A stretch of DNA of 64,000 nt from an uncultured virus (IMG/VR IMGVR_UViG_3300022555_000016) (IMGVR_UViG_3300022555_000016), one strand, 5' to 3'; shown: positions 22,077 through 62,084, counted from the stretch's first letter. Translations and numbers: made by a program. The notes: generated by a model from the letters alone, not told the origin.

Positions 22077-22499
22077 TTGACTATGTTAATCAAGAATAAG
22101 CGTAAAGCATATCATACAGTTGAGCAAAGGGTCTACTCTTGCCAATATCATGTAGTTTTATGCTCAAAGTTTAAACGTAAAGTTTTTGAAGGTGATGTTA
22201 AGAAAGCCTTTGAAAAATGGCTAAAAGATCAACAAGAGAACATTGGCTATACCCTTGTAGACTGCGAGATGGTTGTAGAGAGTATACACCTTGTACTAGA
22301 CGTAGACCCTAAAGTCGGAATACATAACGTAGTGGTTAGGATCAAGTCAGGCTCCTCAAACTATATCCGAAACAAATTTAAGGACGTAAAGACTAGGTTT
22401 CCATCCCTATGGTCACGCTCGTATTTTATTGCGTCTGTTGGGTCTGTTGCTCTACTAAGTATCAAGTCCTACATCCAAGCTCAAACAAAGTCCCAGTGA
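22077..22499 (+). CDS. tnpA: IS200/IS605 TnpA (Y1 HUH transposase) homolog, HUH degenerate
   Basis: VYSCQYHVV.CSKFKRK, IKSGSS, LWSRSYFIASVG, YIQAQ; the canonical DHVH reads ESIH. Confidence 0.9.
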   Translation: MTMLIKNKRKAYHTVEQRVYSCQYHVVLCSKFKRKVFEGDVKKAFEKWLKDQQENIGYTLVDCEMVVESIHLVLDVDPKVGIHNVVVRIKSGSSNYIRNKFKDVKTRFPSLWSRSYFIASVGSVALLSIKSYIQAQTKSQ

Positions 22500-22523
22500 C
22501 TTTTCAAGAAGGAGTGAACTAAT

Positions 22524-24611
22524 ATGTTTATAAATAGCTTAGGTCGTGTTTGTATAACTCCTGAAGAAGCTCAGGAAAAGGAAAACAAACTAGTTGAGAT
22601 GATTGATAAGGGTATTACAGATATAGCGGAATTGGCAACTCATTGGAATTGTCACTATGTTTCTATGTTACATTTCCTTAGAAGTAGGACTATTACTAGA
22701 AACGGACAAGACATACGGTTAGATATAGTGCTTAAAAATATTAGAGATGTTAAAAAGAAGGAAGCACATGATAAGATGATGTCATCAGTCAAAGCTTTAA
22801 TTGATGAGGGAGTAACTTCTATAAACGACTTAGCTATTAAACTAGAAGTTGACTATAACTTCATGTACCGTTTTCTAAGAAATAATAAACTGCTAAACCG
22901 GGGAAATGACGCAGGTCCTGTTAACTTCTTAAGAAACCGGACAACTTTAGACAAGACTTATGTTCTAAAATTGATAAAATCTGGTGTGGATTCTATCAGA
23001 GAATTAGCTGAAGAGGCGGGTGTTAATTATGAGACTATGGTTGACTTTCTTGATGATAAAGGTATCTCTAGAGAGAAGTTACTAGGTAGACGAGAACAGA
23101 ATAAAAGGGACTACCGAGATAACGTAGACAAGATAATAGAATTACTATCTAAAGGCTATACTAAAAAGGCGGTTGAGAAAGAGCTTGGTATAGGACGTAA
23201 AGGGGTTGATGTTATTTTAGACAGCCACCCTGAACTAAAAGATAGCTTTGAGAAGTCTCAAACCTCATATAATCTAAGTCTATACACTAATAGCATTGCA
23301 CCTCTGCTAAAAGCGGGAAAGTCTACTATAGAAATTAGTGAATTACTAAATCTTAAAGTAAGAGCTGTGCGTAGGGCTATAAAGGAGTTTAAAGAGAGTA
23401 AAAAGCCTGTTAAAACTAGGTTACTCGACAATAAGACTATGTCGAGGTTTAATAAACTGTTGGTTAAGGGTAGGTCCCTAGATAAAATTGCTAGAATTTT
23501 AGACTTACCTGCATCTTCTATGTTAGGCTATATCTATAGTAACCCACAGCTAATGGACTCTTATAACATTGTGGAAGACAAGTTTGGTTTAGAAAAGCAA
23601 ATAGCAGAAAAACTGTTTGCTTTATTAAGGTTAGGTACTACAGTAAGAGATATAAAAGATAGACTGAATATAAGCCACGCCTTATACTTTAGACTCAGGA
23701 AACGTTACGCAGAGGATTACGAAAAGGCTTTTCTAAAAAGCCACAATTTCGTAAATAAAATAGATACTGACACCAGAATGCTTCGCATAAAAGCAAACTA
23801 TTCCGCTCTTAAAAGTCGCTGCAAGAAACGCGGAATTCCTTTTGCTATTGAAATTGACGATGTTGAATATCCAGAGTATTGTCCAGTTTTAAATATAAAA
23901 CTAAACTATTTTGGTAAACGTGGTGAAGGAGATATGAGAAATTATTTTTCTTATGACAAATTTTACCCACGTAAAGGTTACCTCGTAGGTTTAGTATTTT
24001 GTATGAGTCACCGAGCTAACACACTTAAAAATGACCTTAAATCTTCAAGAGAATTAGGGTCAATAATTTCAGCTCTTAAAGGTGACCCTAAGTTTAAAAC
24101 TAACTATATCACAAACGATGACTACCGTATGAGTATGTACCGTAGGGCCAAGCACAGAGCTAAAAAGAAGGGTATGCCGTTTACTATAACGCCAGAAGAC
24201 ATCAAACTTCCTGCGAGATGTGTCGTGCTAGGCATACGTCTATGCTACACTAACGATACTATGAGATACAATTCGCCTTCACTTGATAGAATTGACAATT
24301 CGAGGGGGTACGAGCCCTCGAACATCTGGGTCATATCAGCGCGTGCTAATGGGCTAAAACTTGACGCTACTGTTGAAGAGCTTAAACTGTTGTTTAAGTG
24401 GATGCGTAAAGTAGAAGACGTTATGCTTATTAAGACTTTTAGAGACCTTAAACTCAACAAAACTAAAGGTGTTCCTCTATCATCTAAACCTAGAATTTCT
24501 ACAACACCTGTTGTAAAAGATCATCTTACTAAGTCTAAGGTGAATACTCCAGAAGACATTAAGGCAGAGATTAGTAGGCAGAGCCTGCTGAAACAACGAT
24601 CTCTATTTTAG
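22524..24611 (+). CDS. multi-HTH protein with two C-terminal HNH-like (beta-beta-alpha) nuclease domains
   Basis: About 6-7 HTH-like repeats; RxKKxGxPF..CPVL..SYDK/SLDRIDNSRGYEPSNIWVISARAN domains. Confidence 0.75.
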   Translation: MFINSLGRVCITPEEAQEKENKLVEMIDKGITDIAELATHWNCHYVSMLHFLRSRTITRNGQDIRLDIVLKNIRDVKKKEAHDKMMSSVKALIDEGVTSINDLAIKLEVDYNFMYRFLRNNKLLNRGNDAGPVNFLRNRTTLDKTYVLKLIKSGVDSIRELAEEAGVNYETMVDFLDDKGISREKLLGRREQNKRDYRDNVDKIIELLSKGYTKKAVEKELGIGRKGVDVILDSHPELKDSFEKSQTSYNLSLYTNSIAPLLKAGKSTIEISELLNLKVRAVRRAIKEFKESKKPVKTRLLDNKTMSRFNKLLVKGRSLDKIARILDLPASSMLGYIYSNPQLMDSYNIVEDKFGLEKQIAEKLFALLRLGTTVRDIKDRLNISHALYFRLRKRYAEDYEKAFLKSHNFVNKIDTDTRMLRIKANYSALKSRCKKRGIPFAIEIDDVEYPEYCPVLNIKLNYFGKRGEGDMRNYFSYDKFYPRKGYLVGLVFCMSHRANTLKNDLKSSRELGSIISALKGDPKFKTNYITNDDYRMSMYRRAKHRAKKKGMPFTITPEDIKLPARCVVLGIRLCYTNDTMRYNSPSLDRIDNSRGYEPSNIWVISARANGLKLDATVEELKLLFKWMRKVEDVMLIKTFRDLKLNKTKGVPLSSKPRISTTPVVKDHLTKSKVNTPEDIKAEISRQSLLKQRSLF

Positions 24612-24633
24612 ACTGGATGGAATCCAAAGGTGT

Positions 24634-24894
24634 CTAACCCAACACCTTGTAAAACTTTCCCTTAAATGCTAAACCTCTAGAGTAGTCCAAAGGTGTTCCT
24701 AAAACAGGACAATGTGTTACACTAGCTGCCTTTTTAATGTCCGCTGCACAGAGCCCAAAGGGTACACCTTCTAGTTTAGCCTGCGCTTCAATGTCTGTTA
24801 ACATTCTAGCTATTTCGCTCTCGTTGAATACTACGTTCTCAGACTTTTCCAACTTGCTAGTCTTCAACTTCTTCTTAAGCTTGCTTTCACCCAT
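24634..24894 (-). CDS. small protein with truncated CPVLG nuclease-associated module
   Basis: AKLEGVPFGL..DI...THCPVLGTPLDY; lacks the DRID..N catalytic part. Confidence 0.55.
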   Translation of the reverse strand: MGESKLKKKLKTSKLEKSENVVFNESEIARMLTDIEAQAKLEGVPFGLCAADIKKAASVTHCPVLGTPLDYSRGLAFKGKFYKVLG

Positions 24895-24961
24895 GTTACC
24901 TACTCCAGTTGTTCACTACACCCAATGTACCAATACAACCAACCTCAAAAGGAATCTAATC

Positions 24962-25111
24962 ATGACTAGCCAAAAGACTCCAGTAACCACTGAGACTTTC
25001 AAGCAACCTACCAGCCGTGCAGAAATTCTTGCACTTACGGGTATGAAAGAGCTTCCTACTCACTGTCCAGTTTTGGGTATCAAGCTGAACTACTCTAACC
25101 TACGTGACTAA
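24962..25111 (+). CDS. 49-aa protein with truncated CPVLG module
   Basis: AAGGA RBS, then MTSQK...ELPTHCPVLGIKLNY; followed by a terminator. Confidence 0.55.
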   Translation: MTSQKTPVTTETFKQPTSRAEILALTGMKELPTHCPVLGIKLNYSNLRD

Positions 25112-25134
25112 CCACTAAAAGCTAACACCACCCC

Positions 25135-25170
25135 AAGGGAGTAATTGGCACATTAGCCAATTACTCCCTT
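25135..25170. terminator. bidirectional-type hairpin terminator
   Basis: AAGGGAGTAATTGGC/GCCAATTACTCCCTT followed by a T run. Confidence 0.65.
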
Positions 25171-25185
25171 TTCTATTCTACCTAG

Positions 25186-25214
25186 ATATTAACACACCAA
25201 TTCTAGAAAGTCAA
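25186..25214 (-). promoter_or_regulatory. sigma70-type promoter
   Basis: TTGACT-17nt-TAATAT. Confidence 0.55.
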
Positions 25215-26240
25215 CTAAAAAGTTGCTGACTTAAAAGAAAAGTTGTCACGCCGCAAACTCTGGCAACTTAATCCAGTCACTATTTAGCACCGTGTAGATT
25301 TCAACCCAGGAGATGTCAGTGCTATAACGAATAACACACTGAACATCCCAAATGGACCCGGCTAACAAAGGCTTCAACTTGCCCATGATGAACTTAGCAT
25401 GGTGTGGCGTAAGCTGCTCTTCCAATCCAGCGGGTCCAGCGATATTACCCTCAAAGTTAACAGTAACATCGACATCAGGATTGTTTTTCGCAAACTCAAC
25501 CAAAGGGTTAGGAAAAATGTAAAGCCAGAGGGACAACTTTTTCTTAAGCCCACTCTGCAAATTGGTGTTATCCCAATCCGGCTGGTAGTTATCAATTAGG
25601 GTTAACAACCCCGCGAAGATACCTTCCAACTCATCATCGGAGTAAGGCCAGTTTTCTAGTTTTAGGACATTCCTACGCGTTGACAAGCTCTTAGCAATTG
25701 CCAGATTAAGCTTGGCGTCTAAACTACGAACGATAGTCATTGTTTTACCCTCCATCACACCACAAGTTCAACAAAACCAATGACTCTTTTAACTGATTTC
25801 TTCAGGCTCTTACCCAAACACTCAACCTCTTTGAACACGATCCGGTCCAGGACTAAATCGTCCAAGTAGTAACCCCAAATACCGTAAGGACCGTTGCTCT
25901 CTTTCCTGTTTCTCAGTCCGGTCATACGGCCAGGGTCACCAACTTCTTCCTCTTCCTTGTCATAAATACGAGAATAACCTAAATTAACACACTTGAACAA
26001 AGTTAACCTGCTAAACCCGGCTTTACACTTGAACTTCAGGTCTACTTCTCGCCGCAACGGAAACGTGAACCGTAGCACAATTTCACCACTATCTATTAAC
26101 ACCTCGTCACTAATAGGCAAATCGTCAGAGTAATCTACCACCTTCGGCGAATCTTCAAATTTAATCTTGATCATTATTTCTCTACCCCGAACCCGGTTGT
26201 TCAACTAGGAACAACCGGGTCCTTTTATCTACAGGTGTAT

Positions 26241-26423
26241 TTATTTTATTACCGGCTTGCCACCGTTAGCCTTTTGTTCAGCTCTAACTTCCTTAAGTAT
26301 TGAGTTAAAAGCTTCTTCCTCAATTTTTCTAAACTCTTCCTGAGTGTCATGAAACCGTTGACACACCCTTTTAGCCTCCTCAAATGAGTAGACTTTCTCT
26401 TGCTTATCTCCGCTGCGAGCCAT
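26241..26423 (-). CDS. hypothetical protein, tandem module copy 3
   Basis: KVYSFEEAKRVCQRF..EEAF..IL.EVRA. Confidence 0.6.
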   Translation of the reverse strand: MARSGDKQEKVYSFEEAKRVCQRFHDTQEEFRKIEEEAFNSILKEVRAEQKANGGKPVIK

Positions 26424-26428
26424 GACTT

Positions 26429-26599
26429 TTATTCTTCTTTATTACACTTACGTCGTGCCCGCACTCTCAATAAAACTTCCTGAAAAGCCTCTTCTTCTGA
26501 CTTTCGAATCTCTTCCCGATGCTCTTGAAACCACTTACAAGCTTCCTTAGCCCCTTCAAGAGAGTATATTACCTCAGATGTATCATCCGAACGAACCAC
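26429..26599 (-). CDS. hypothetical 56-aa protein, tandem module copy 2 (not in ORF track)
   Basis: GTG start; MVRSDDTSEVIYSLEGAKEACKWFQEHREEIRKSEEEAFQEVLLRVRARRKCNKEE. Confidence 0.65.
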   Translation of the reverse strand: MVRSDDTSEVIYSLEGAKEACKWFQEHREEIRKSEEEAFQEVLLRVRARRKCNKEE

Positions 26600-26604
26600 G
26601 ACTC

Positions 26605-27309
26605 TTACTCTTCTTTATTAGACTTATCTCGCGCTCTAACTTCCATTAGAATAGAGTGGAGCATTTCTTCCTTAAGTTTTTCAAAATCTTCCCGTGTGTC
26701 ATCAAACCACTTACACACTTCAACTGCTTCCTTAAAGGAATAGATTTTACCTACTTCTTTGTCCACATTACGAGCCATAACCTTTACTCCAGGTTTAGCA
26801 AAATGATAAAACAACTCTTTAGAGTTAAAAGTTGACTTAACTGGAGAAAGCTTATATCCTATAGAGTCAAGAACTTCAAATAACTCAAGGTAACGAGTCT
26901 TTGTGACTTTTTCATCCGTTAATTTTAAAACGAGGTAATCTGGATTCCCTGACTTAATCAAAACTACAGGTACCAAAGAATTTATCAATTTACTGATTTT
27001 AGTACTATCATTTCTTAAATCATATTTATCTATTAAAGCTTGAGACTCGGAGGTTACACCATCATGAACTATGATGTATTTGCCACTAACATTATCATTG
27101 ATAAATAAGCCGTAACCTAACTCAACATAAGATAACTTATAACGTAAACTAAAACAAACGCTTAAGGTTGGAAAAGAATTCGCATATTCTGCTACTTTCT
27201 TAAGGTAAACTATTGCACCTCCTGATTCTCTAACCTCCCAATCAGCTTTATCATTAAACTTCCATTTGGACAAGTGTGCTTCAATGTACTGGTATAAGTC
27301 TTTAAACAT
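26605..27309 (-). CDS. hypothetical protein carrying tandem module copy 1 at the C-terminus
   Basis: C-terminal MARN..KIYSFKEAVEVCKWF..EVRARDKSNKEE. Confidence 0.6.
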   Translation of the reverse strand: MFKDLYQYIEAHLSKWKFNDKADWEVRESGGAIVYLKKVAEYANSFPTLSVCFSLRYKLSYVELGYGLFINDNVSGKYIIVHDGVTSESQALIDKYDLRNDSTKISKLINSLVPVVLIKSGNPDYLVLKLTDEKVTKTRYLELFEVLDSIGYKLSPVKSTFNSKELFYHFAKPGVKVMARNVDKEVGKIYSFKEAVEVCKWFDDTREDFEKLKEEMLHSILMEVRARDKSNKEE

Positions 27310-27324
27310 AGTTACTACTCCTTC

Positions 27325-27600
27325 CTAACAACCTAACCCTGCAACACAGGCACAAACATCAGAACTGGAAATTGGGCTAGAGCCTTTCCAAGTAGACTTC
27401 TCTACAACGTCTACGTTATTATCAGAGTTGTCAGGATCAATTGAAGCATTGTACATTACCCACTTATTACCAATAGCAATGTACGCTTGATCGCTATTCT
27501 TATCATAGTAGATGTCATAGTCTTTAAAAGTAGTAGGTTGCTTATCTAACACGCCTAAAAGATTTAATTCAGTCATTGATTTTACCTCCCTACGAACCAC
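27325..27600 (-). CDS. small protein with C-terminal CACVAGLGC motif (paralog A)
   Basis: Paralog of 28036..28323; start may be the later Met (MTELN). Confidence 0.6.
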   Translation of the reverse strand: MVRREVKSMTELNLLGVLDKQPTTFKDYDIYYDKNSDQAYIAIGNKWVMYNASIDPDNSDNNVDVVEKSTWKGSSPISSSDVCACVAGLGC

Positions 27601-28035
27601 TAAAACTTTAGAATCTCTAGTGGTTCGTCATATAAAACTAAACTTACTCTACAAGAACCAGTGTACCAGCATCACCAAGAACTGATTCTGCCCAAGCATA
27701 CAACTTTTCCCGAAGGTCAGGATCAATAATATCCAGAAACACGTAGTCACAAGGGTTTTCGGGTAACTCTCCAATGTTTTCGGCCGTAAACGAACCCCAA
27801 ACTATTAAATCTCCTTCTTTAACGAGATCGTTGTACGCTTTAGCAAAATGTGTGATTAACTCTTTAGTTGTTGATTCCTCGCTGAGAAAACGAAGCCTAA
27901 GCTTGGAATCAAACAAAGTTAAACCTAGAGCACTAGCCATTGCTAATTTTACTTTACCATGACCAACTTCAGCAACAATTTTAACTGTACGCATAACTTC
28001 TCTCCACAGACTAGATTAAAAATTACGAACCCACC

Positions 28036-28323
28036 CTAACAACCTACTCCTGCAACACAGGCACAAACGTCGGAACTATTTGAACCACTGTCTCCGACCC
28101 AACTACTAACTGTAGCGTCTGTACCACGTTGAACGCTAGAGGCAAGTGGAGTGTATGACAGGTTGTACATTACCCACTTACCGTCAATAGCAATGTACCC
28201 TTGACCCGTATTCTTATCATTATAGAAATCATAGTCATCAAACTTAGTAGGTTGCTGGTCTAGTTCACCTAAATAGTTTAGCGCATTCATAACAACACCC
28301 TTTCCTAGATTAAAAACTACCAA
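28036..28323 (-). CDS. small protein with C-terminal CACVAGVGC motif (paralog B)
   Basis: LG.LD.QPT.F.DYD.Y.DKN..Q.YIAI..KWVMYN.S shared with paralog A. Confidence 0.6.
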   Translation of the reverse strand: MVVFNLGKGVVMNALNYLGELDQQPTKFDDYDFYNDKNTGQGYIAIDGKWVMYNLSYTPLASSVQRGTDATVSSWVGDSGSNSSDVCACVAGVGC

Positions 28324-28678
28324 CGATGTCCGATTTGGACAACGCAGCGTATTTCAAAAACCCACGAGCAACGTCCCAGTCAAGTTGGGTTATTAGTTTT
28401 CTATTGTACTCCCACCAGTCAGGCAACCAGTCTGGAGAAAACAATAAAGGTACTACTTCATCAGCAGCTTGCACCAAATAATCCGGGATGCTATAGCAAC
28501 CTTCCCTAGCCTCCCAGGTGTCAGGATCATGCCTAATCTTGAAGTCTTCTGGGTTAAGCTCTGGTTTGTCTACCTGACCACTCCAATAGTCTACAAGAGT
28601 GCAGCATACCCTAAAGTTTAGGGACTTAGTGTTGGGACTATCTCCAGCAAACATTATTGCACCCACAACGCAAACTCC

Positions 28679-29113
28679 TTAACTCAACCAAGCTTCTTCT
28701 AAAGTCTTCACTGGAACCGGCTTTGGTTCCTTACTGTCGTAGGACATGTCAACCACATTGACAATCCTACCTATATTTACAGGAAAACAGCCAAAGAACT
28801 TGGTACCGTCAATCTCAACAGTCTGTTTACAACCGACCCATGTTTTATGATCCATTACCCTAGTAAACCAACTGTAGAAATATTCTTTTGATTCCTTACA
28901 GCCTGTTAGATCAAAAGATAGTTTTCCTGGAATGCGTCTAAGAGGTATGCCAGTCTCCCTATCACCAACATGCTCTTCCCTAAAGACAGGAATCACGCCC
29001 AATATCCAATCAGTCCTACCTCTAGTTATCTCTTCTTTAAGGTACTCTTGCTCATCAGCAGTTAGATTAAAACTGTTGATCTCTACCGAATCGTTACCGA
29101 TCTTGATAAACAT
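28679..29113 (-). CDS. hypothetical protein, T4 gp19 tail-tube-like segment
   Basis: IPGK.SF...YFYSWF...FFGCFPVNIG...MSYD. Confidence 0.4.
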   Translation of the reverse strand: MFIKIGNDSVEINSFNLTADEQEYLKEEITRGRTDWILGVIPVFREEHVGDRETGIPLRRIPGKLSFDLTGCKESKEYFYSWFTRVMDHKTWVGCKQTVEIDGTKFFGCFPVNIGRIVNVVDMSYDSKEPKPVPVKTLEEAWLS

Positions 29114-29790
29114 GAGCTATTTCTCCTCTAGGAAAATTACGGCCTACGACTATCCACGACGATTGTTGTTTCGTACATAGAGATAATCCAAAACAATCAT
29201 TACCGGCCAGAAAGTCCAGGCAAGTAAGACTAAACAAAATAGCTTAACAATAGAAGCTAAACCCAACCAAAAATTATGATGAAACATGTAGTTAAACAAC
29301 ACTGAAAAGTTCAAATCCGCCATATTTCTTAAATTACCGATCATATAGACGAAAAAACCAAAAAAGTAAATAGTCCAAAAATAAATCATCACCAAACTCC
29401 TCAACTACCGATTAGAATCAAAAACAACAACTTGCCAATAAACAACCCACTGATGAAAGCACCCAACAAACAAATGTAGGCTTTGTCCACTTCAAACCCC
29501 ATTACCAAAAACCGTTAACTAAAAACTCGGACACGTTTTTGATCCGAACGTTGGTTTTAACCATTCTACTATCCCTGGAACCCGCAGCGTCCGTGTAGTG
29601 TTCTTCCTCATAGACTAGGCCGCAGTGTTTACACACATAGAAATATGGCTTTTCGGGATAGACCAATTGATCATTAACTACCGTTAGGAGTTTACCAAGA
29701 AAAACAAAATCCTCATGTATTTCGCTACAACAAGAACGACGATGAACAGCTGTTACCGTTACAGACATAACACCTCCTTAATTACGAGGT

Positions 29791-29928
29791 TGGTCGCAGG
29801 AGAGAATCGAACTCTCGTCTCGGCGCTGACCGTGTTCTACCATTGAACTAGAGAGTGCAAACACTCCCGAACGGAATTGAACCGCTCATCTCGGTAGGGT
29901 CCGTGTTTTACCATTAAACTACTGCAAC
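29791..29928 (-). ncRNA. double tRNA-like RNA (two D arms, two T arms, no normal anticodon arm)
   Basis: GTTGCAG-TA-GTTTAATGGTAAAAC-A-CGGACCCTACCG-AGAT-GAGCGGTTCAATTCCGTTC-GGGAGTG TTTG CACTCTC-TA-GTTCAATGGTAGAAC-A-CGGTCAGCGCCG-AGAC-GAGAGTTCGATTCTCTC-CTGCGAC-CA. Confidence 0.85.
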
Positions 29929-29973
29929 ACAGAGGGTGAGAGTAAGTCTAAGCTGTACTCCCACCCAAAATAG

Positions 29974-30483
29974 TTAGACTACAGTTCCATCAACTTTACC
30001 AATTAAAACCTCTCTAGCGGTAAAACTAGAACAACCTGTACCACCACCAATAGGTACAGTCTGATTTGTCAAGTTGTCAGAACTAATAACTCCTATTGCT
30101 GTAGTAGAACTCAACTCTGACCGAAGACGATAACCTTCCAACGGCCAAATCTGAGTAACTGCGTCTTGCCTAGCAATCTTACGACCTAGCTCCGCGTCAA
30201 AGTTCTCAGGGCTAGCACAAGCGGACTTACCGACCACTGTGAAACCGTTCTTGAGAACTAAAACACACAAGGTCAAGAGGGATAAGGCTACGGGAAGTGA
30301 AGCTATCGCTTCAGGCTTAGTTGCTTCCTTTGGAAGAGAATCGTAGTATTCCCCAAACACACCGTCAGAGGCTAAAAAATAAAACTCTTGGGTGATGGTG
30401 TTTTCAATGTCTTGAGGAGTAATCCTAGGAGCAGTTAAACCCTTAGCCTGAATTTCTGCTTCAATTTGATTGTTAGTAGACAT
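29974..30483 (-). CDS. N4 gp49/Sf6 gp66-family phage protein
   Basis: TAPRITPQDIE, LTLCVLVLKNGFTVVGKSACASPENFDAELGRKIA...IWPLEGY; start at MSTNN. Confidence 0.85.
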   Translation of the reverse strand: MSTNNQIEAEIQAKGLTAPRITPQDIENTITQEFYFLASDGVFGEYYDSLPKEATKPEAIASLPVALSLLTLCVLVLKNGFTVVGKSACASPENFDAELGRKIARQDAVTQIWPLEGYRLRSELSSTTAIGVISSDNLTNQTVPIGGGTGCSSFTAREVLIGKVDGTVV

Positions 30484-33866: not shown

Positions 33867-33888
33867 AGATATTACCTACTGTTAAAAC

Positions 33889-33917
33889 ATAGTACCACAA
33901 CGGTACAAACAAGTCAA
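33889..33917 (-). promoter_or_regulatory. sigma70-type promoter
   Basis: TTGACT-17nt-TACTAT. Confidence 0.7.
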
Positions 33918-35110
33918 GCGGAATCTTTTTTAAAAGATTCCGCTTTTTCTAATCCTTCAATCTTTCAGGCGTCCGGTTTTGTCTAGCCATAAACCACGCT
34001 CTGCCATGAACCCAAGCCAGTTGTAGCAACGTTGGTTTTGTAACCACTTGCGTGGGTAGGTAGGGAGTTTGCCACAATCAACTCCGTTACCTTCTTCCAA
34101 TTGTCTTTTGAAAGCGGTACGTCCTTGCCTGAACCAAATAACATATTTGGACACGGTAATAAAGTTAGTCCCATCTTTTTCGTCTATTAAAGGCATAAGG
34201 TTAGTCCTTTACTCAGAGTCATGACAGAGCCACCTTACACCGTAAAGATATAAGGGTAGAGAAACTTCGCTGACTTGTGTCTGATCAAACTTGCCAGTAG
34301 CTTTGATATAGTTGGCTACTGTGAGGGCTTTATCAACGTCTCTCAATCTAGCGGAATAGATACTCTTTTGACGAGTCTTTCTAGCTAGAAAACTCTCAAG
34401 AGCTGATTCTTTGGTTGGACAGGCATGTTTCTTGTTGTGGCTGTTTAGGACTAAAACCTCGTCTGATCCTGAAAAATCGCCAAACCACCTACGTAGTTTT
34501 ACTCCTTTTGGAGTTAACTTAGTTACCCTAAACTCCAAAAGATTAACTTTAAGAGTGCTTGATCCTACGATATTATCAAACTCATCAACCGGCGGTGCGT
34601 AGGATTGGTCCTCGTACCTGTACCAGATGTCCCCAACTTGTGGTGTAAACATGATTATCTACCTCAACCGAGAAAGAAGCTTGTTATATCGACGATCAAA
34701 CAAGTCAATCTTTAACTTGGAGTGGTTACTGCACGACAAGTCCAAGGCGTCATCTCGAAAACCTAGACACTGCAAAGACATAGCTTGAAAATGTTTGATC
34801 TCAAGGTTAACTTTTTGAATCTCGTTGAACGTATCCATGGCGACTCCTAGTTAGGACGAAGGTCAATAAGCCTAATGATGCTATGGCTCCCAAACAAACG
34901 TTGTGCAAACACTTCTACCGCTTCAGCAACCTCCCTACAAGCAAAACCTGTAGCTTTACTGAAATCATCACTGTTGTTTGAAAAAGGCACCCATTCATCG
35001 GTAGTTACATTGTACAAATAGGACTTATGGAACTCTAAAGTTTCCAACTCTTTTAACAAGACCTCCTTAGACTCAAAAAGCTTAACCAAAGTTTCAGCAC
35101 TAACATCGGC

Positions 35111-35293: not shown

Positions 35294-35299
35294 TAAAGC

Positions 35300-35328
35300 A
35301 TCGTAACACAAAAGAATCAGGAAGTCAA
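35300..35328 (-). promoter_or_regulatory. sigma70-type promoter driving the omega-RNA-like element
   Basis: TTGACT-17nt-TACGAT. Confidence 0.7.
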
Positions 35329-35397
35329 GGAAACTTTTAGTACAGGTAAGATTCTATTGAACTAGGATTCTAGAAGTAGTTGGCTAAAATGTTAGAA

Positions 35398-38500: not shown

Positions 38501-38576
38501 GCTTTGCCACTTTGACTACTTCCGCTTAGTTCTAAAACTTCAACCATTGACTAGACTCCTTCTTGAGATTATTAAC

Positions 38577-38605
38577 ATGTTACAACAATCGAACGATGAA
38601 GTCAA
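38577..38605 (-). promoter_or_regulatory. sigma70-type promoter
   Basis: TTGACT-17nt-TAACAT. Confidence 0.65.
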
Positions 38606-40911
38606 GGAAATTTTTACCAAAAAGCCCAAGGTGTAGTTTGATTTACACCTTGGGCTTTTCAGTCTATTTAGATAGGTTAACTGGCGTCTTTAATGGACTT
38701 GATGTAAGTGTTGAACCAGTCAGTAGGAGACATCCACTTAACACCACCAGTACCGTCAGCTACAACAATTGAGCCTTCAGCAACAGGATTTTCTTTTTTG
38801 AACACTTCACCAATAATTCCAAAGGTACCGTAGGAACGAAGCTGAGAAGCATTAACTGCCATACCGGTGTTATAGTTACTAGCCATGGTAGCGTCCTTTA
38901 AAAGGAGATAGTTACAGAAAGGTCAAATGACCAAAACAATTAGTTAGGTTAACTAAGTGCTTAGTCCAGCACCCAAGGATGTCGTTTGTTGAATTAAAAC
39001 CCAACGACCGTTGTCAAACACGACGTAGCAGTTAATTAACGCTTTACCTTCGTAGCGCAATGTCCTTAAATCACCTTGCTCACCGCTAGAAGGCGTGCGG
39101 TCTAGTTCATAGTAGCCTTTGTAGACAACTTGTCCTTCAACCGGTTCCTTGGACTGACTAGAAGATTCTTCAGTAGTTTTGTTTGAACGGGCTTGGTTTG
39201 ACAAACCGACAATATCGCCGCTCCACTTACCACACCAGTCTACTGCTTTAGTTGTCGGCCAAGTTCCTTGAGGACAGGGTGACTTTTGCCTACACAACCC
39301 ATTATCATTATAATTAAAGGCTTCCCAATAGTCGCAAGTTGAGCATCTCATTTTGTGCTTGATCTTGTTAGACATGTCGTGCTCCACGAGTTTGCATTTC
39401 AGTTAGAGTTATTTCCATGGTTTTCAACCGATCTATTAAAGTTGATTCGTCTAGGGACAACTTTGCACTTAGCTGAGGATCAGCATGTTGAACTGTTACC
39501 TTAGCAGCACCTAGAGATTCAAGGTGCTTGGCTAGAAGGACAATTAGAGAAGTCTTACCAGAGTGTTCTGGTGCTGAAATTTGAATTGTTACACGAGCAT
39601 TAGGCATCTAAGGCTGTCCTTTTATAGGTCTATAAAGTTGAGTGTTAGGTGGAGGCGGGCGTTCATAACGTTTCTCGTCTGGACACAAGGTTTCTAGGTT
39701 ATGGAACCCTGCGACTACGTGGACACAGAGAGAATCAACCTTCCAGAACAACAACTTGCTTTGGTGGATTAAGCACCTGTGGTTCTGTCTGTTGAAGTGT
39801 ATGCAGTTGTAGTTTATTCCCACTTGGGACTCCTTACGTACAAAACTTCATAAGTTGCCGGTGTCTACACAAACCGTAATAGAAACCTGAATCCTTATGA
39901 CTTTCTCTCATCTTAGCATAGGGCATAGCGCGGAAGGTCACTTTAGACGGCTGCTTAAGTCGGGTTCTAAAGTTAGACAACCATGGTGTGTACAGTCTAT
40001 GATAGAGGTTCTCTGGTGGTCGGCGTCGTTCAAAGGCGTATTTAGACATTACTTATTACTCCATAGCGACCAGGGCCAAATAGACATTACCACAAAGAGA
40101 AAAGTCAACTCTATAGTACTAAACTGATAATTATGGTACCACAAGGCTAGGACTATAGAGCTTACACCGATACCTATTAGGTTTACTTTGGAGAACATTG
40201 GCTTCCTTTGGTTGGAAGAGAAGGTGGTAGATTTTACTGTCTACCCCCTTCTCTTTAGGTTACAAGGTCAATGACTCAGATTGCTGGTAGATAGCATTGG
40301 CGACAAGCTGTGTTGTTGCTATTACCGTAGGTGGGGCGTTATGGTCAACTAACAACAGGTTCACGGCTAACTAGTTCCTCTTTATGAAGAGACAGGTTGA
40401 CTATCTCAAAACAGGCAAATTGAGAGTTTTCAAAAGGCCACCCTGAAGACAGGTTCCAACCGTATAGTGGATTTACTGACATGCTATTGCTCCTTTGGAT
40501 AGCCGTTCAGATTTAGACTCTTGAATCATCTCTTCCAATCTAGAAGTTGTATCATTTAGGTCCTTGGTTATAGCTTTCAGTCTAGTTGAGTAATTGTTGA
40601 AAGCGTTAATTAAACCCTTAAGGGCGTCAAGCTGTTTGTCAAAGGAGGACATGACTGGTTAATCCTAATCCATAGCTGTTTCTATGATGATAGTTAAAGA
40701 TTACTTAATTAGGAGACAACTCCAAACTTGACAATCTCATGGTCTTCGGGATTGAGGTTGTGGTGGATTAGTTCTAGAGTTAGAGCGTTGACGGAGTTTG
40801 AAAAATGCGCGTGGTGAGCGTTAGAGGTGTAGCTGTAGCTAGCGTTACCTGTGAACCATTCACCGTGCTTGTTCCGGGCAGCATAGATTATTTGGTTATT
40901 AGAGTTGGACA

Positions 40912-43449: not shown

Positions 43450-43560
43450 TTTAAGCTCCCTTTAGCCTAGTTTTAGGCTTTGTTGACGATACACGAAAAA
43501 GTTAGAAACTTTCTATCAAACTAACTTGTTTCAAAGTTAACTTGAGTATTTAGTGTAGGT

Positions 43561-43589
43561 ATACTAGCACAGGAAAATCTGGAAGTCAA
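43561..43589 (-). promoter_or_regulatory. sigma70-type promoter
   Basis: TTGACT-17nt-TAGTAT. Confidence 0.65.
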
Positions 43590-45529
43590 GAAAAATTTTA
43601 GCACTATTAGTGTCACTAGCCTTCACAACTTTGAAGTCCTCTATGTTCATCACGAAACTCCCAGCACCTGTCTAATCTCGGATTTAGCTGCTTGTTTACC
43701 GTTCTCAAAAGTTCGCTGCATAGCCCTGGCTACCGACTCGGCCAAGTGAACATTAGGCAAAGTTACATAGCTAGTCTCTCCACGCCAAGGGTAACAAACT
43801 TCAAACTCAGTCGCCTCGGGATCCTGTCTATCACAAATTTCTCTAGACGAACTGTTGGCAATAGACTTGTATGCCACAACTTTAATATTTGACATTATGC
43901 AGCACTCCTAGCAACAGCATCCAATCATCCAACCACCACACCGGCCCAAGAGGTCAAACGGCTTAACAAGTACTCGTACAAAACCCAAAACGGGTTGCTA
44001 TCCAGCTGCTCCTGTTCGCGCTGTTTCTCGAAAACTCGATTGACCTCGATAGCAATAGCCTTAGCTGATTCAGTACAACCATTAGCATCCAAACCAAAAG
44101 ACGGCAGGTACAGTAGTTCGGGGTTCTCGTCTGAGAGTTCTCTTAGTTCGAGGTTGACTCGAGATAGCAAAACGTCCGAATCAACCTCCTCTCCAGATGC
44201 CAGAAATAAAGGATAACCCATGATTCCACCCTATCAATAAACAATATCTGAATAATTAACTATTAGTTGTCCAAGGTCATCTATCTTCAAACGACAACCC
44301 TGTAGTTCAACTTTGTCGTCACTAATTAGTGAGAAACTACCGTCAAAATTCCGTTTGCCTAAGTTAAAAGTGATCAACCTGTTATGTCCGTCCAAGTTCA
44401 ATATTACACCTAACGGGTGCTCTAACGGAGCATAGTCGTAGCTCTTAGGAACAGAAACAGGCTGCCACTTGTTAACTCTAAACGAATCGGACACGCCAAA
44501 CTCCACAACTGGTTTCTACAGCAACTACGTTAGCCAACTAACAACAAAAATAACGACCAAATATAATTGCACAGCTTACCAAAGCCGTATATCCCTCCTA
44601 AAACCAATAGGAACAAACCTAACAAGTAAAATACCGTTGACAAGTCAGTAGGTGGTTGCTTTTCTGGATCAAGAAAATCAAACTCGTGCAGCATTACAAT
44701 CTACTCCTTACTCCAGGGTACGTTCAACAACGTAGAGATGAAAACCTTATTGGCCCTTTTAACCAATTGAATTAACAGCCTAAGTACACCAATTACTGTG
44801 TTAACCGCTAAAAACACGGCAACCAAGGTGATTATTCCTAAGTTGCAAACTACAACTCTCAACCTAATCACCGCGCTAATTTTCTTAGGCTTAAGTGCTG
44901 ACATTAACTTTTATGCCAAATAGAGTGCAAGAATGCTGCAAATGTTAAAACGGCTAGAGTTACTCCGACTCCTACCAAGATTACTATCCCGACAATATGG
45001 AACAACCCCATTACCAGCAACCACAACGGAATCGAGATAGGAAACGTTAAAACAAACAGTTTCCTATAGAACATATGCCAAGACATTGGGTTTCTCAACA
45101 ATGTGAACCAATTAACAGCTGTGTCAACAAACTGCACCATTTGACAAACTCCTTTAACTACTATAGGGCTAAAGAATAAACACAGATTCATGACCAAACC
45201 GTGGCTCAACTTCGACAATGGATTGTATATGGACATCTGTGTTGTCTGTGTCAGACACAACCTTTAGCCTAAAAGTCTTGTAGGAATTATTTGACCAGAC
45301 ACTGTCCAGCAGTAGTTGTTCCACTGGCTTGTCTCTATAGGCAAAACTTACGCGGAACTTCTTAGCTACTGTTAAAGACTCTAGCACGGGAAATCCTCTA
45401 AGTCAAGGACAATTTTACAAGACTTTTACTCACGCTTTTTGACTATGATTAGGACTAACCGTTTTTAAAATTCCTTATTCTTGTCGGCAATAGTTCCTAG
45501 AATCAAAATTAAGATTCCTCAAAAAAGAG

Positions 45530-55608: not shown

Positions 55609-56835
55609 ATAAAAGTTACCTTCCTTACGATTCTTGATAGCACACCACCAATCAGTTTTATGACGCAAAACACCCCAAGATAAAGCTACCAACTGACCGT
55701 CTACCCAATAAGACTTATAGTTACCAGTAGAAGCCTCTACTTTAACCGTGGGGTAGTGGTGTCTAACATAGTCTAACACCGAGTCAATGCTATTAAGGCG
55801 TTCCTTCTTTCCACCGTTTAACAGTCTCCATCCTACGTTTCCTACCATTACAACCACCTTTTTATAAGAAGTCTACAGGTCAGGCGACATCTTCTATATA
55901 TCTTACCAGCCAACACAGTGTCTGCAACACGACGAGGCCATTCTGTATCACAGGTATTGGTGTCGGCAATAGTTTCAAGAGCTTGGCGACAACGATCTCG
56001 TGCTGCACACAAACCTTCTATCACTGCGTGAGAGGCTTACCTTTTGGGCCAAAAATCTTTCCACACAACTTTAAAAGTTGAAACCTCAACAATCTGTGCA
56101 AAGGCACAATCTGGAAAATGTAGCTTCTTGCGATAGTCCTCAACAAACGTTAAAGCTGACTGAAAATCAGCAAACTTGCCACGAAAAGAGCCCCAACCCC
56201 ACAAACTAGTGTCGGGGCTATCTTCATAACCACCAACAAACACTAAATATTGGTATAGCATGTTACAAACTCCACACCTGAGATCAAGAGTAGACACTGC
56301 TGATCTCTTGATCTCAGGTTTGTTAAACTAGGTTATGTCAAGTCAGGTCTTGGATTTTCCAGCCTGTGGAAACCAAGGTGCGAATTAGAGATTCTTTATT
56401 GCTCACCAACTGAGCTTCAAGCAACTGAGGGCAGCTATCAAAGTCATCCTCGTCGTCGTCATATAGAGAAATGAGGTCATCCTGAGCGGCGATCATTTCA
56501 GAGTTTATAGAGGACGGACCTCTAAACAAAGTTTTGACTAGCAAGGTGTTTGTTGCCAAGTCAAACGTATCCGGGTAGATGGAGAACTTAAGATCGTTAA
56601 TAATAACGTCGATTCCTAGTTGTTCTCCTGACATGAGCCAGCCAGGCAAGTCCACTTCCTTAGACAGAAGTTCAAAGGAAGGGTTCCTATTTTTCTTGAT
56701 GTCCTTCCTATTGGCAAAGAAGACCAAAGGTAGAGACAAGAGGCAGTGTACGTTAGACATAGGTTATATTTCCTTGCAGTGTTTTGTTGAAGGTCCTGAT
56801 CATGACAGAACAAAAACCGAATGTCAAGGGGAAAA

Positions 56836-57078
56836 TTAACACTGACTGAGTTGTCTTTTTTCAAGAGGTAGAGAACGGACAAAACGCTTGATATCTGAGC
56901 GCCAGTTCTGGATTCCCAACCGATCTGACGGAGTTCCTGCTAGGGGAAACTTACGACCGGCGACAATTAAGTGAGTATGCTTTCCTCCATCTTTTAGATC
57001 GTAAGGAATATTGTGCTGAGACAATATCTTCTCAGCTTCACGAACTCTTTCCCGTTCGTGCTTATTAAGAACAATCAT
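56836..57078 (-). CDS. HicA-like dsRBD-fold small protein
   Basis: GGKHTHL....FPLAGTPSDR....N.RSDIKR. Confidence 0.55.
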   Translation of the reverse strand: MIVLNKHERERVREAEKILSQHNIPYDLKDGGKHTHLIVAGRKFPLAGTPSDRLGIQNWRSDIKRFVRSLPLEKRQLSQC

Positions 57079-58539: not shown

Positions 58540-59586
58540 CTAGTCCTCTAAACTGTCTTCATTCCTACTACGGAAGTATTTACGTAGAAGGTCACGTAAG
58601 GTTATATTGTTTCCAGATAGTACGGGGAGACCTTGCCAATCGTCTACTAAGTCTACATCAGGATCAAACTTTGAATCAACGATTACGCTTCTACGAGAAA
58701 CATAGCCTCGATGCTTCTTAGAACCATGATGGTTGTGTGCTATAGTACCGGAAATATAGCCTATGTTCTTACGAACGTACTGGCTACATAGCTGTACAAA
58801 CCTAGACAAGCGGCGACGATAACCTGGAGTAATAGTGTCTGGATCAATGAAGTCTACTGAAGAATGATCTAAATTTAACAAACCTGCAAAGGAGAGTGCC
58901 ATGACATAGTCTGCTGCTCCAGTAACACACCAGTCTAAAATGCCAATCTTGTCGTAAATCTCTTTACGAATTGCCCAGGCGTAGCCATAATGACTCTTAG
59001 GAGCTTTAAAGCTATGACCGTAGTCAGCGTTAGGTACTTCCCGAAAGTCCCCGTCTACCCACGCCGCACAGAATGACTTATCTACGGTAGAACCATGCTC
59101 ATTTTGAATAATCTCTCCTTTTGCGGAAAGATCAACTGAATTGGACCAAGGTTGCACGACTGCGTAGTGCTGTAAAGCAGCAATCGTTTTACTAGCCCAC
59201 TGAGCGTCAAGAAATGTCAAGTCAGCATCAATCCAAGCAATGTACTTAGCATCATGAGGGACAGCACGACTAATTCCTACTTTAATTAAAGCCTCTTTTA
59301 ACCAAGTCTCATGGCGTTCATCACCACGCAGTTGGACATGGAAAGGATTAGCAGCGTCAGTTACTTCCCACGGACGATTACCGAAAGCGTGCTCTACACG
59401 AATAACTTGAACGTTAGGTGTAGACTCCAAACGCTCAACACATTGGAGAAATAGAGGAACACGACTTTTCCAACCAACGGGATTAGACAACACGGCGATA
59501 CAGTAAAGTGTGTTTTCTGGGTCTAAACCGCTACGTGGGTCTTTAGGATGACTATAGTGTAAACCAACATTAAGTTTGTTTGACAT
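58540..59586 (-). CDS. GT-A fold glycosyltransferase-like protein
   Basis: WLKEALI..G, YIAWIDADL (DxD), HYGYAWA, GAAD, HNHHGS..R.Y. Confidence 0.65.
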   Translation of the reverse strand: MSNKLNVGLHYSHPKDPRSGLDPENTLYCIAVLSNPVGWKSRVPLFLQCVERLESTPNVQVIRVEHAFGNRPWEVTDAANPFHVQLRGDERHETWLKEALIKVGISRAVPHDAKYIAWIDADLTFLDAQWASKTIAALQHYAVVQPWSNSVDLSAKGEIIQNEHGSTVDKSFCAAWVDGDFREVPNADYGHSFKAPKSHYGYAWAIRKEIYDKIGILDWCVTGAADYVMALSFAGLLNLDHSSVDFIDPDTITPGYRRRLSRFVQLCSQYVRKNIGYISGTIAHNHHGSKKHRGYVSRRSVIVDSKFDPDVDLVDDWQGLPVLSGNNITLRDLLRKYFRSRNEDSLED

Positions 59587-59723
59587 TTCTTGAAACCTTC
59601 TTAAAATTATTAACCTCAGCCCTACGATCAAAATTAAGAACCAATAGTAGTTTTTAAAGACGTTGTTACAAAACGACACAATTTTTCTTAGTTTTACCAC
59701 AATTTTGTAACATTACTACCAGG

Positions 59724-59778
59724 CGTAAAAAGAGTCCAGTAGCACGAAAACTACTGGACTTCAAGGACACATTGACTG
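59724..59778 (-). repeat. composite repeat copy 1: CGTAAAAAGA-hairpin-CACATTGACTG
   Basis: Same flanks as 62191..62249 around a different hairpin (GTCCAGTAG/CTACTGGAC). Confidence 0.6.
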
Positions 59779-59800
59779 GAAGATAGCTAGTAACACTAAA

Positions 59801-60814
59801 CTAAGTTTGTTCTCTAAGTTTTGCAGCGTTTAAGTAGTCAATGGCACGTCTGATTAGTTTAGTCTTGTCTCTAAACTCACCTAACGCTACATTGCATGTG
59901 CGACAAGCGTAGCCTCTAATTAAACCTGTAGTGTGGCAATGTTCAATTTCAAGGTAAGGAACGTCATTACCACAGATAGCGCAAGTGCAGTAAGTAGATG
60001 ATACTTTATCAAGTAACTTTCTTAAGTACCTACCATGAGCTGCGTTGTTTTTACCTTTAAAACCATTCAAAACCGTATGGATCATTAGCCTAACCCTAAT
60101 GGAAAACTTAACGTTCTCTATTACAATTACAGCAATTTTAGACCTTGAAAAGTTAAGCAGCTTACTAATAGTTTTAGTTGACTTGCCAGATTCCCATAAA
60201 CCTATTACTTTTTTAGCAAAGTCTATTTTAATAGCTCTACGTGTAGCACTTCCCTTATCAATACTCTCCTTAAGAGGAGATGCTCTTTTTAAGATATTAT
60301 TAGGAATACTGTTTTTAGTAAGAGCCTTGCTAACAGTATTCACAGAAATATTAAATTTTGCTCCAACTTCAGCCTTGGTAACATTAGGTTCAGAAAGATA
60401 AGCTTTACAGATTTGTTTTTCCAGCTTACCTGTCAACTTCCTAGAATTTGGCCTACCTGCGGCGTTAACTAGTCTAATAACTATACCGTTTTCTTCTAAG
60501 ACTTTCCTTATGGTATGCTTGCTTACCCCGTAGTCTTTAGCAAGTTTAACCAAGTTTTGTAATTTAATATAGTCTTTTGCTATGGCGGCTTCCTCCGCCT
60601 CAGAAAAAACATGCCTACCATTAACCATAGGACGTGTAAACTCTTTTTTACGATCTTTCCTAAACTGCCTACGCTTAACTACCCTTACGCCGTGCTTTGC
60701 CCGCACTTTGCGTACAATATAACCACTAACATTACAAATCTTACCTGCTTCTTTTAAGTTAAAGCAAGAATTATAGGCGTTTATTATAAGAAGCTCATCT
60801 TCTTTGGACAACAT
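59801..60814 (-). CDS. multi-HTH protein with C-terminal endonuclease VII domain
   Basis: About 4 HTH repeats; CAICG..IEHCHTTGLIRGYACRTCNVALG. Confidence 0.85.
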   Translation of the reverse strand: MLSKEDELLIINAYNSCFNLKEAGKICNVSGYIVRKVRAKHGVRVVKRRQFRKDRKKEFTRPMVNGRHVFSEAEEAAIAKDYIKLQNLVKLAKDYGVSKHTIRKVLEENGIVIRLVNAAGRPNSRKLTGKLEKQICKAYLSEPNVTKAEVGAKFNISVNTVSKALTKNSIPNNILKRASPLKESIDKGSATRRAIKIDFAKKVIGLWESGKSTKTISKLLNFSRSKIAVIVIENVKFSIRVRLMIHTVLNGFKGKNNAAHGRYLRKLLDKVSSTYCTCAICGNDVPYLEIEHCHTTGLIRGYACRTCNVALGEFRDKTKLIRRAIDYLNAAKLREQT

Positions 60815-60842
60815 GTGTAAATCCTTTATACTTAAGGTTAAA

Positions 60843-61651
60843 CTAAAGCGGATACTTTAAGTAAAGTATCGCCGATTCCATATAGTCAGTATTGTCTTTA
60901 AGCAGCCCTAATCCCGAGTTGCAACAGTAACATAAGTAACCTCTAATAGCACCACTTACGTGGCAATGATCTATAGTTAAAGATTCTACTTCTCCACAAA
61001 TGTCACACGCTCTAGGTTTAATGTCTAGCATACGTCTTAAGTACTCCTTACTAGATTCATAACTGGTACCTAATAAATTTGTTGTAACGTAAGTTATTAG
61101 GCTTTCAATCTTCTTAGAGAAGTGCCTATTTTCACAAATGTAGTCTGCTACGTTATATATAGGCTTCCTAATGTTAGCAGAAATAGTGTCAATATTAACA
61201 CCTTCATCCCACATAGTTAGTATACTATTAAACGTATCTTTATGCTTACGGACTCTTTCTTTTAAAGCTTCCTCAGAATTAGCGTGTTTTATAGATTCTT
61301 CATGTATAGCTTTACGTTTATTACGTTGAAATTCCGTATTAGTAGGTATTCCAAAGGAATTTAAAATTCTACTAACTGTAGTACAACCAACATTATATTT
61401 AATGGCTAAAGAACTAATGTTAGCGGAGGGAGTTTCATACTCACGACATAAGGCTACTTTTTGCTCATAAGATAAAAAGGTTTTAGACTTACTTTTAATA
61501 ATTGAAGTGTCTAAACAAAAATCTATATCATGTTTCTTAAGCACTTTTTAATCTTATAAACTGTAGTACTAAACCTAACAGCCGTGCCATTTAAGTTTGA
61601 ACTTTTGGTATAGAAATCGACAATGGTTAATTCTTGCTCTTGAGTAAACAT
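60843..61651 (-). CDS. multi-HTH endonuclease VII protein, N-terminal HTH joined via a frameshift at 61545-61549
   Basis: CDICG..IDHCHVSGAIRGYLCYCCNSGLG; upstream ATG 61651 with AGAAGGA RBS encodes MFTQEQELTIVDFY..KIKK out of frame by one nt. Confidence 0.8.
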
Positions 61652-61670
61652 AACTAAAATCCTTCTAGGT

Positions 61671-62084
61671 TTACAGTTTGCGTTGAAGTTCAATGAACGC
61701 TAGAATCTCTTTAACGGAGGAGGAACCTACTGTAGCAATGAAACAATTCTTGGTCCACATGCAAGGGATTCGACTCTTTAGGTCAGGAAACTTGGACCGT
61801 AGAATCCTAGCTGAACCATCTTTGATCTTATCAACTATAGACATAATAGTTACGGTTGGGGGTATGTCTACTACTACGTGAACATGGTCGTCTGTAATCT
61901 CCACTCCCAATAACACGTAACCAAACTCTACTTGTTTGTCTCTAATGAATCCCTTTAATACTGTAGAAATACCGTCAACCAAGACATGACGACGATACTT
62001 GGGGCAGAACACTATGTGGTACTGACAGGAGAAAACCTTGTTGTTTTCCTTACGGTAGGCTTTCTTGGGAGGCTTTACCAACAT
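61671..62084 (-). CDS. tnpA: IS200/IS605 TnpA homolog, catalytic Tyr replaced by Phe
   Basis: VFSCQYHIVFCPKYRR, intact DDHVH, IKDGSARILR, MWTKNCFIATVG, FIELQ instead of YIxxQ. Confidence 0.92.
   Translation of the reverse strand: MLVKPPKKAYRKENNKVFSCQYHIVFCPKYRRHVLVDGISTVLKGFIRDKQVEFGYVLLGVEITDDHVHVVVDIPPTVTIMSIVDKIKDGSARILRSKFPDLKSRIPCMWTKNCFIATVGSSSVKEILAFIELQRKL

Follow-up and report, generated by a model that had tools for sequence, protein, structure and literature searches.

Two small genes of an uncultured virus, T1 and T2, encode proteins related to TnpA of the IS200/IS605 insertion sequences (IS), which is to our knowledge the smallest known transposase. They lie in a stretch of 64,000 nucleotides (nt) from IMGVR_UViG_3300022555_000016 (IMG/VR), referred to here as the window, and a third gene of the same kind, T3, was found on a metagenome contig that apparently belongs to the same phage. 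All three proteins carry a catalytic lesion, all three genes are under purifying selection, each is linked to an endonuclease gene, and they share an upstream sequence motif. We suggest, with about an even chance of being right, that the genes, each at the head of a homing-endonuclease cassette, encode TnpA-like proteins that have been domesticated, are dimeric and lack catalysis, and that are neither the halves of a split enzyme nor junk. We infer that the proteins would form dimers, bind nucleic acid and be functionally connected to the neighbouring nuclease.

T1 (22083 to 22499, plus strand) encodes a protein of 138 amino acids (aa) from the ATG at 22083 used in the gene call of the collection; an alternative TTG start at 22077 would extend it to 140 aa. 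T2 (61671 to 62084, minus strand) encodes 137 aa. Both open reading frames (ORFs) are full length and uninterrupted, as the initial annotation had described them, and both match the Pfam family Y1_Tnp (PF01797) from position 2 to position 121 of its 121-position profile (E = 4.8e-29 for T1 and 1.2e-29 for T2). The bit scores over these positions are 101.4 for T1, 103.3 for T2 and 103.7 for T3. T1 and T2 share 38% identity without a gap, and the predicted fold of T1 has a mean predicted local distance difference test (pLDDT) score of 90.7. T1 contains the stretches VVESIHLVLD and SIKSYIQAQTKSQ; it reads E-S-I-H and retains the Tyr and the Gln of Y-x3-Q. T2 contains the stretches TDDHVHVVVD and EILAFIELQRKL; its D-D-H-V-H is intact and its F-I-E-L-Q keeps the Gln with Phe for Tyr. 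Both proteins align without a gap to the IS608 TnpA chains 2vhg and 2a6m, where "esih" of T1 falls on "dhih" and "afielq" of T2 on "qyienq"; therefore the Ser of T1 occupies the position of the first HUH His, and the Phe of T2 that of the catalytic Tyr. The two reciprocal lesions claimed in the initial annotation, loss of the first HUH His with Y-x3-Q kept in T1 and replacement of the catalytic Tyr by Phe with D-H-V-H kept in T2, are thus borne out by the alignment. According to passages of a study of IS608 (PMC3597680), mutation of H64, H66 or Y127 inactivates its TnpA.

The initial annotation had spoken of two paralogs. T1 and T2 are indeed paralogs, but the count was incomplete, as a third lesioned paralog exists. 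T3 lies outside the window, at L050:6001-6414 on a 129-kb metagenome contig (L050); its protein (P0026) matches Y1_Tnp and combines D-H-V-H with a Trp at the Tyr position. An HUH motif with both His residues is therefore absent from T1 (S-I-H) and present in T2 and T3 (H-V-H), and the Y-x3-Q motif reads Y...Q in T1, F...Q in T2 and W...Q in T3, the Gln being retained in all three. T3 is encoded on 29 contigs, and its largest contig (208448 bp) and its sources are the same as those of T1 and T2. Judging from the common longest contig and sources and from the common upstream motif, T3 apparently belongs to the same phage of about 208 kb. A 9-nt promoter-like word common to the window and L050 was also considered and is too weak to tie the two together. 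Among 1.84 billion representative proteins, the best match of T1 is T2. The two are sisters in two quick trees, with approximate likelihood ratio test values of 89 and 88; the placement of T3 is not resolved in these trees, and a clade of T1, T2 and T3 is not rejected by the approximately unbiased (AU) test (p-AU 0.47). The pairwise identity among the three is 33-39%, and on these results each has its closest relatives in the other two.

The window seems to be a section of the genome of a large phage: the minus strand carries nearly all of its ORFs, its gene content includes a RecA/UvsX-like protein, Hfq, one tRNA-Lys and several endonuclease genes, and contigs of up to 208448 bp encode the same proteins. 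The stretch with the first cassette, that of T1, is carried by lake and freshwater metagenome runs from three studies dated 2016 to 2020, and at positions 17000-29000 the contigs of four such runs match the window with at least 99% identity. A protein identical to T1 is encoded on 28 contigs and one identical to T2 on 22 contigs, from several sources, and a variant of T2 from another sample (P0018) has two substitutions elsewhere and retains the Phe. The lesions are not sequencing noise, since the same proteins recur across contigs and sources, P0018 keeps the Phe, and the four runs agree. A megablast of positions 18000-30000 against the phage collection gave no near-identical record, and among viral contigs there were no relatives of T1, of the neighbouring RecA/UvsX-like protein or of the lesioned relatives P0032, P0025 and P0070. 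No RNA dataset was listed among those containing the cassette 1 stretch.

The coding sequences of T1, T2 and T3 align over 137 codons without a gap or a stop. Among them, the proportion of synonymous differences (pS) is 0.77-0.89 and saturated, against a proportion of nonsynonymous differences (pN) of 0.40-0.44; the saturation prevents a value for the ratio of the two substitution rates, dN/dS, and pN and pS are used instead. The Y1_Tnp scores of the three proteins are 101-104 bits, compared with 132-143 bits for four catalytically intact relatives. On a reading as plain decay, the three genes would be dead IS200/IS605 remnants heading for loss, and their reciprocal lesions would have arisen by chance. 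The gapless 137 codons, the saturated synonymous sites against a pN of 0.40-0.44, and the confident fold of T1 make this unlikely. The match to the full Pfam profile at 101-104 bits, and the identity of at least 99% of the sequence across lake samples from runs dated 2016 to 2020, point the same way, and we regard plain decay as very improbable.

The evidence that speaks for decay comes from the relatives. We surveyed 166 proteins on one profile, consisting of the top matches of T1 and the matches of T2, of which 137 cover both motifs. Both motifs are intact in 80 of these 137, the HUH motif alone is changed in 29, the Tyr alone in six (three of them, T2, P0018 and T3, from this phage), and both in 22. 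Counting T1, T2, P0018 and T3, 57 of the 137 are therefore lesioned, so the closest relatives of T1 have often lost catalytic residues. The Tyr is replaced by Phe in 25 cases, by Trp in two and by Ser in one, and 131 of the 137 retain the Gln. Outside this phage, 22 of the 25 relatives with a changed Tyr also have a changed HUH motif, whereas T2 and T3 keep D-H-V-H. Lesions also occur in ordinary settings, as in a solitary lesioned copy in a Pectinatus metagenome-assembled genome (MAG) and a copy with Tyr changed to Cys that adjoins a TnpB-like ORF. Many of the metagenome relatives nearest to T1 (P0020-P0166) have lost HUH or Tyr residues and are still of full length, which suggests a wider class of putatively non-catalytic TnpA-like proteins. 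By contrast, a first set of TnpA genes on viral contigs comprised 49 loci, in which 46 ORFs match the Y1 profile and every full-length one has both motifs unchanged. A second set comprised 80 loci with 78 ORFs listed; 75 of these cover both motifs, all 75 are unchanged, and they mostly lie beside a TnpB-sized gene. Four TnpA loci of cultured phages are ordinary annotated IS200/IS605 pairs.

Each of the three TnpA-like genes heads a cassette and stands directly before the gene of an endonuclease with multiple DNA-binding repeats, whose family differs from cassette to cassette: phrog_3322 for T1, Endonuclease VII for T2 and the CapR/DUF4379 zinc-finger type for T3. A nuclease domain and DNA-binding repeats between phage genes were found, as in homing-endonuclease cassettes. 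Features of an insertion sequence, namely a TnpB or IscB neighbour or a tnpA gene alone, and near-identical copies, were not found for these genes. Cassettes 1 and 3 have the opposite orientation to every gene that flanks them. In cassette 1, a gene for a 695-aa protein (22524 to 24611, plus strand) begins 24 nt past T1 and encodes many helix-turn-helix (HTH) repeats and two C-terminal endonuclease modules. The protein matches phrog_3322 in two stretches (E = 2.1e-45), phrog_1035 and phrog_3118, as well as the Pfam families HTH_7, HTH_23 and HTH_28. In cassette 2, T2 is followed by two tandem paralogs with 32% identity, a 233-aa HTH and Endonuclease VII (HNH-type) gene (60843 to 61544, minus strand; Endonuclease_7 E = 1.2e-16; phrog_2633) and a 337-aa multi-HTH and Endonuclease VII gene (59801 to 60814, minus strand; Endonuclease_7 E = 1.9e-15). 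In cassette 3, the gene that begins 13 nt past T3 encodes a protein of 511 aa, which contains four zinc-finger repeats of the DUF4379/CapR type, matches the endonuclease families phrog_559 and phrog_681 (E about 1e-59) and has many phage matches. The partners of T1 (695 aa) and T2 (337 aa) show only weak similarity, in their HTH parts.

Free-standing homing endonucleases adjoin the gene they target, and the same arrangement could have arisen if the TnpA-like genes, with a function of their own or none linked to a nuclease, had served as landing pads beside which homing endonucleases repeatedly settled. The nuclease would be copied in beside a conserved neighbour after cutting within that gene or close to it. 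In favour of this, the partner nucleases come from three families that differ in their DNA-binding repeats, and the remnants in cassette 1 and the two tandem nucleases in cassette 2 look like repeated invasion of these spots. One of these remnants is an 86-aa ORF on the minus strand (24634 to 24894) with a CPVLG...L.Y motif and a match to phrog_3322 (E = 1.1e-5), probably what is left of another endonuclease gene. The other, possibly a second endonuclease remnant, is a 49-aa ORF on the plus strand (24962 to 25111), in which the motif was read as CPVLGIKLNY and which has no PHROG or family match. The region 24634-25111 thus holds two short ORFs on opposite strands, both with the CPVLG..L.Y motif of the phrog_3322 endonuclease; because they look like leftovers of earlier endonucleases, the spot was probably invaded more than once. 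However, the ability to target diverged copies (33-39% identical) of one small gene would have had to evolve in every one of the three nuclease families. Cassettes 1 and 3 are also operon-like, the nuclease gene starting 13-24 nt past the stop of the TnpA-like gene, in the same orientation and behind the same motif. Contigs of the four runs, three of which give short pieces of low depth, contained no cassette-free joint across cassette 1 and no differences. We consider the landing-pad explanation unlikely.

The three genes share a motif of roughly 24 nt, of the form GG(G/T)AATAA(C/T)(C/T)TAATTTT..., located about 35-60 nt before the ATG. It is found in cassette 1 as GGGAATAACTTAATTTTGTTTAGT (22024 to 22047, plus strand), about 36-60 nt before the ATG of T1, and in cassette 2 as GGTAATAATCTAATTTTAAGATAG (62129 to 62152, minus strand), upstream of T2. 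In the 64-kb window the 24-nt pattern occurs in the upstream regions of T1 and T2 only, with 0.01 occurrences expected. The motif may be promoter-like or operator-like; no conserved secondary structure was found in it. The main promoter class of the phage is probably a different one, represented by a 41-nt family with seven copies (8162-8202, 16483-16523, 33888-33928, 35299-35339, 38576-38616, 43560-43600 and 56798-56838) and the core GAAGTCAAG, in which, on the gene strand, a TTGACT-type -35 box precedes a -10-like box. A looser match to the cassette motif was seen about 60-90 nt before the Hfq start (around 62600-62625).

We found no shared hairpins or IS ends at the cassette edges, where weak or diverged ends could escape, and no repeated palindromic element or family of repetitive extragenic palindrome (REP)-like repeats in the window. 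The strong hairpins at the edges are terminator-like and mutually unrelated. Cassette 1 ends at a terminator-like hairpin with a perfect 15-bp stem followed by a T run (25135 to 25170, plus strand). Cassette 2 lies between a terminator-like hairpin after the Hfq gene at its upstream edge (62203 to 62233, minus strand) and another at its end (59733 to 59760, minus strand), and cassette 3 ends at a perfect 21-bp palindrome.

The conservation of the active-site surroundings was scored by region, with the catalytic columns omitted and 81 intact relatives as the comparison set. For the HUH strand, the scores are 3.2 (T1), 7.8 (T2) and 11.0 (T3), against 27.6 +/- 7.9 in the intact set; for the alpha-D helix, they are 9.0, -5.7 and 4.3, against 32.8 +/- 8.5; and for the first strand, a predicted dimer contact, they are 37.1, 49.5 and 49.5, against 40.7 +/- 19.3. 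By these scores the surroundings of the active site are relaxed on both halves in all three proteins, and the first beta strand and the core are kept.

It was proposed in the initial annotation that T1 and T2 form a heterodimer that rebuilds one active site from the HUH motif of one subunit and the Tyr of the other. The premise is in print: passages of PMC3597680 report that IS608 TnpA assembles its active sites in trans, and that an engineered H64A/Y127F heterodimer, which has one active trans site, cleaves the right end (RE) and the junction of right and left ends (RE-LE) with no detectable strand transfer. In the phage, T1 would be the only donor of the Tyr and T2 or T3 the donor of the HUH motif. 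Such a pair would act as a single-strand nickase that is guided by hairpins and forms a 5'-phosphotyrosine link but cannot transfer strands, the other site being doubly dead. Modelling of the T1/T2 heterodimer gave a score of 0.80 in three runs, against 0.00 for the best control, with at least 92% contact agreement between runs and a partner pLDDT of at least 86; the pass mark is reached by 116 of 157 solved complexes and by 2 of 215 mismatched pairs. In both modelled chains, residues 66-67 and 126-135 take part in the interface. The modelling check of the proposal is therefore passed, but the score does not separate a heterodimer from a homodimer, and since solved TnpA homodimers exist, the pass may reflect likeness only, a memory of those structures. 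There are further points in favour of a split site. Each paralog has one lesion and all three keep the Gln; T2 and T3 keep D-H-V-H, though 22 of the 25 other Tyr-changed relatives have lost part of the HUH motif; the region scores lie in the expected direction, T1 having the best alpha-D score and T2 and T3 the better HUH strands; and the common upstream motif would permit co-expression.

Against the split site, the halves that would be retained are poorly conserved (HUH strand 7.8 and 11.0 against 27.6, and alpha-D of T1 9.0 against 32.8), the genes are 39 kb or more apart, each with its own nuclease partner, and a third lesioned paralog exists. No substrate hairpin was found at the cassette edges, in the upstream motif or among the palindromes of the window, and lesioned relatives occur without a visible partner, as in the Pectinatus MAG. 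A site that does not rejoin would also leave the protein covalently stuck on the DNA. The proposal of a rebuilt site thus retains the modelled dimer and the engineered precedent in its favour, and it loses ground to the third paralog, the relaxed surroundings, the solitary lesioned relatives and the missing hairpin; we consider it unlikely. Its fuller form, a naturally split HUH enzyme that works only as heterodimers and nicks without rejoining on single-stranded DNA at replication forks, seems to us quite unlikely. If true, it would be the first natural trans-complementing derivative of a Y1 transposase and a new coupling of a transposase relic to homing, and such a nick-only enzyme could start the recombination that copies the linked homing-endonuclease cassettes, or serve phage replication. 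The alternative offered in the initial annotation, non-catalytic binders with partner nucleases, fits better than the heterodimer, the binding itself being something that we infer.

Compared with TnpA of IS200/IS605 elements (IS608, 2vhg and 2a6m; ISDra2, 2xm3), the phage proteins belong to the same Pfam family, have the same length (about 137 aa) and align without gaps at about 34-40% identity to IS608 TnpA. They also share a predicted two-fold dimer, with alpha-D lying against the HUH strand of the partner, and the class 1 Y-x3-Q spacing with the Gln kept. They differ in that each lacks one catalytic residue and that no subterminal hairpin ends were found; unlike IS copies, they are only 33-39% identical, and their neighbour is a protein-only endonuclease and not TnpB or IscB. 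T1, with the first His lost, and T2 or T3, with the Tyr lost, divide between two proteins the kinds of lesion found in the engineered H64A/Y127F pair, as described in passages of He et al. 2013 (PMC3597680). However, the engineered chains differ from the wild type at those residues only, whereas the phage partners are 33-39% identical and have relaxed surroundings, and the heterodimer is in their case a prediction.

Like the REP-associated tyrosine transposases (RAYTs, or TnpA-REP), the phage proteins are derived from a transposase, kept by selection and not part of an autonomous IS. RAYTs keep the HUH and Tyr motifs, with a class 2 Y-x3-NP, according to passages of PMC6006769; the phage proteins, in contrast, have a class 1 x-x3-Q motif and have lost catalytic residues, and no REP-like arrays were found in the window. 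The closest parallel for the gene order is the IS605 tnpA-tnpB pair, in which a small TnpA is followed by a nuclease able to act as a homing endonuclease; TnpB of such pairs is described as a guide-RNA homing endonuclease by Meers et al. (bioRxiv 10.1101/2023.03.14.532601). The phage cassettes differ from these pairs by having HNH / His-Me and zinc-finger nucleases with protein DNA-binding repeats, by lacking a TnpB fold and a guide RNA, and by a TnpA whose catalysis is disabled. TnpB itself is the ancestor of Cas12. Neither full-text literature searches nor passages of a 2026 review yielded an account in which a lesioned TnpA gene is coupled to a protein-only homing endonuclease.

We therefore return to domesticated, non-catalytic TnpA-like proteins as our preferred reading. 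The three genes would be old duplicates of an IS200/IS605-type TnpA that were retained by selection after transposition was lost, each with one disabling change: the His is replaced by Ser in T1, and the Tyr by Phe in T2 and by Trp in T3. Every cassette consists of the shared motif, the TnpA-like gene, one or two free-standing genes of the homing-endonuclease type and a terminator-like hairpin, the nucleases being arrays of HTH or zinc-finger repeats joined to a nuclease domain. The TnpA-like dimer may still bind nucleic acid, as TnpA binds single-stranded hairpins, without cutting it. It might then act as an accessory or regulatory subunit that holds or marks the DNA at the cassette or at the target; alternatively, it might control the expression of the cassette through the shared upstream motif.

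Several points weigh against this reading. No binding target was found: neither the cassette ends nor the motif have a conserved hairpin, and the window has no repeated palindrome. The link between TnpA-like and endonuclease genes comes from one phage with three cassettes, and the one lesioned relative retrieved with its surroundings, in a bacterial MAG, is solitary. The single complementary lesions and the perfect D-H-V-H of T2 and T3 are what the heterodimer proposal predicts. The adjacency could simply result from endonucleases that target or settle beside tnpA-like genes, with no joint function. Finally, the matrix behind the region scores was built from the intact set, which inflates the mean of that set, although the gaps are nevertheless large.

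Other features were noted near the cassettes. In cassette 2, a 42-aa HTH-like ORF without a Pfam match (61523 to 61651, minus strand, with its ATG at 61651) runs into the beginning of the 233-aa gene, which is in the -1 frame, at an AAAAAG run (61544-61549, within 61541-61551). The ORF may represent a small protein in its own right, an N-terminus cut off by a frameshift or a broken gene, or the site may allow a programmed -1 shift. Directly upstream of this cassette lies the gene of an Hfq-like protein (62304-62540, minus strand; Pfam Hfq E = 4.1e-14). Just beyond cassette 1 there are tandem repeats of about 176 nt in three copies and of about 711-714 nt in two copies (26266-26718 and 27312-28290; families D2, D3 and D5). 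Beside the T3 cassette, two small, very basic Lys/Arg-rich proteins without a family match are encoded on the minus strand (L050:3956-4264 and 5489-5842), together with two paralogous proteins of about 290-314 aa, likewise without a family match.

Crippled copies of TnpA that have long been kept beside protein-only homing endonucleases point to a job for the TnpA fold that is non-catalytic, or catalytic only jointly. They also suggest that transposons and homing-endonuclease genes, two sorts of selfish DNA, are connected.

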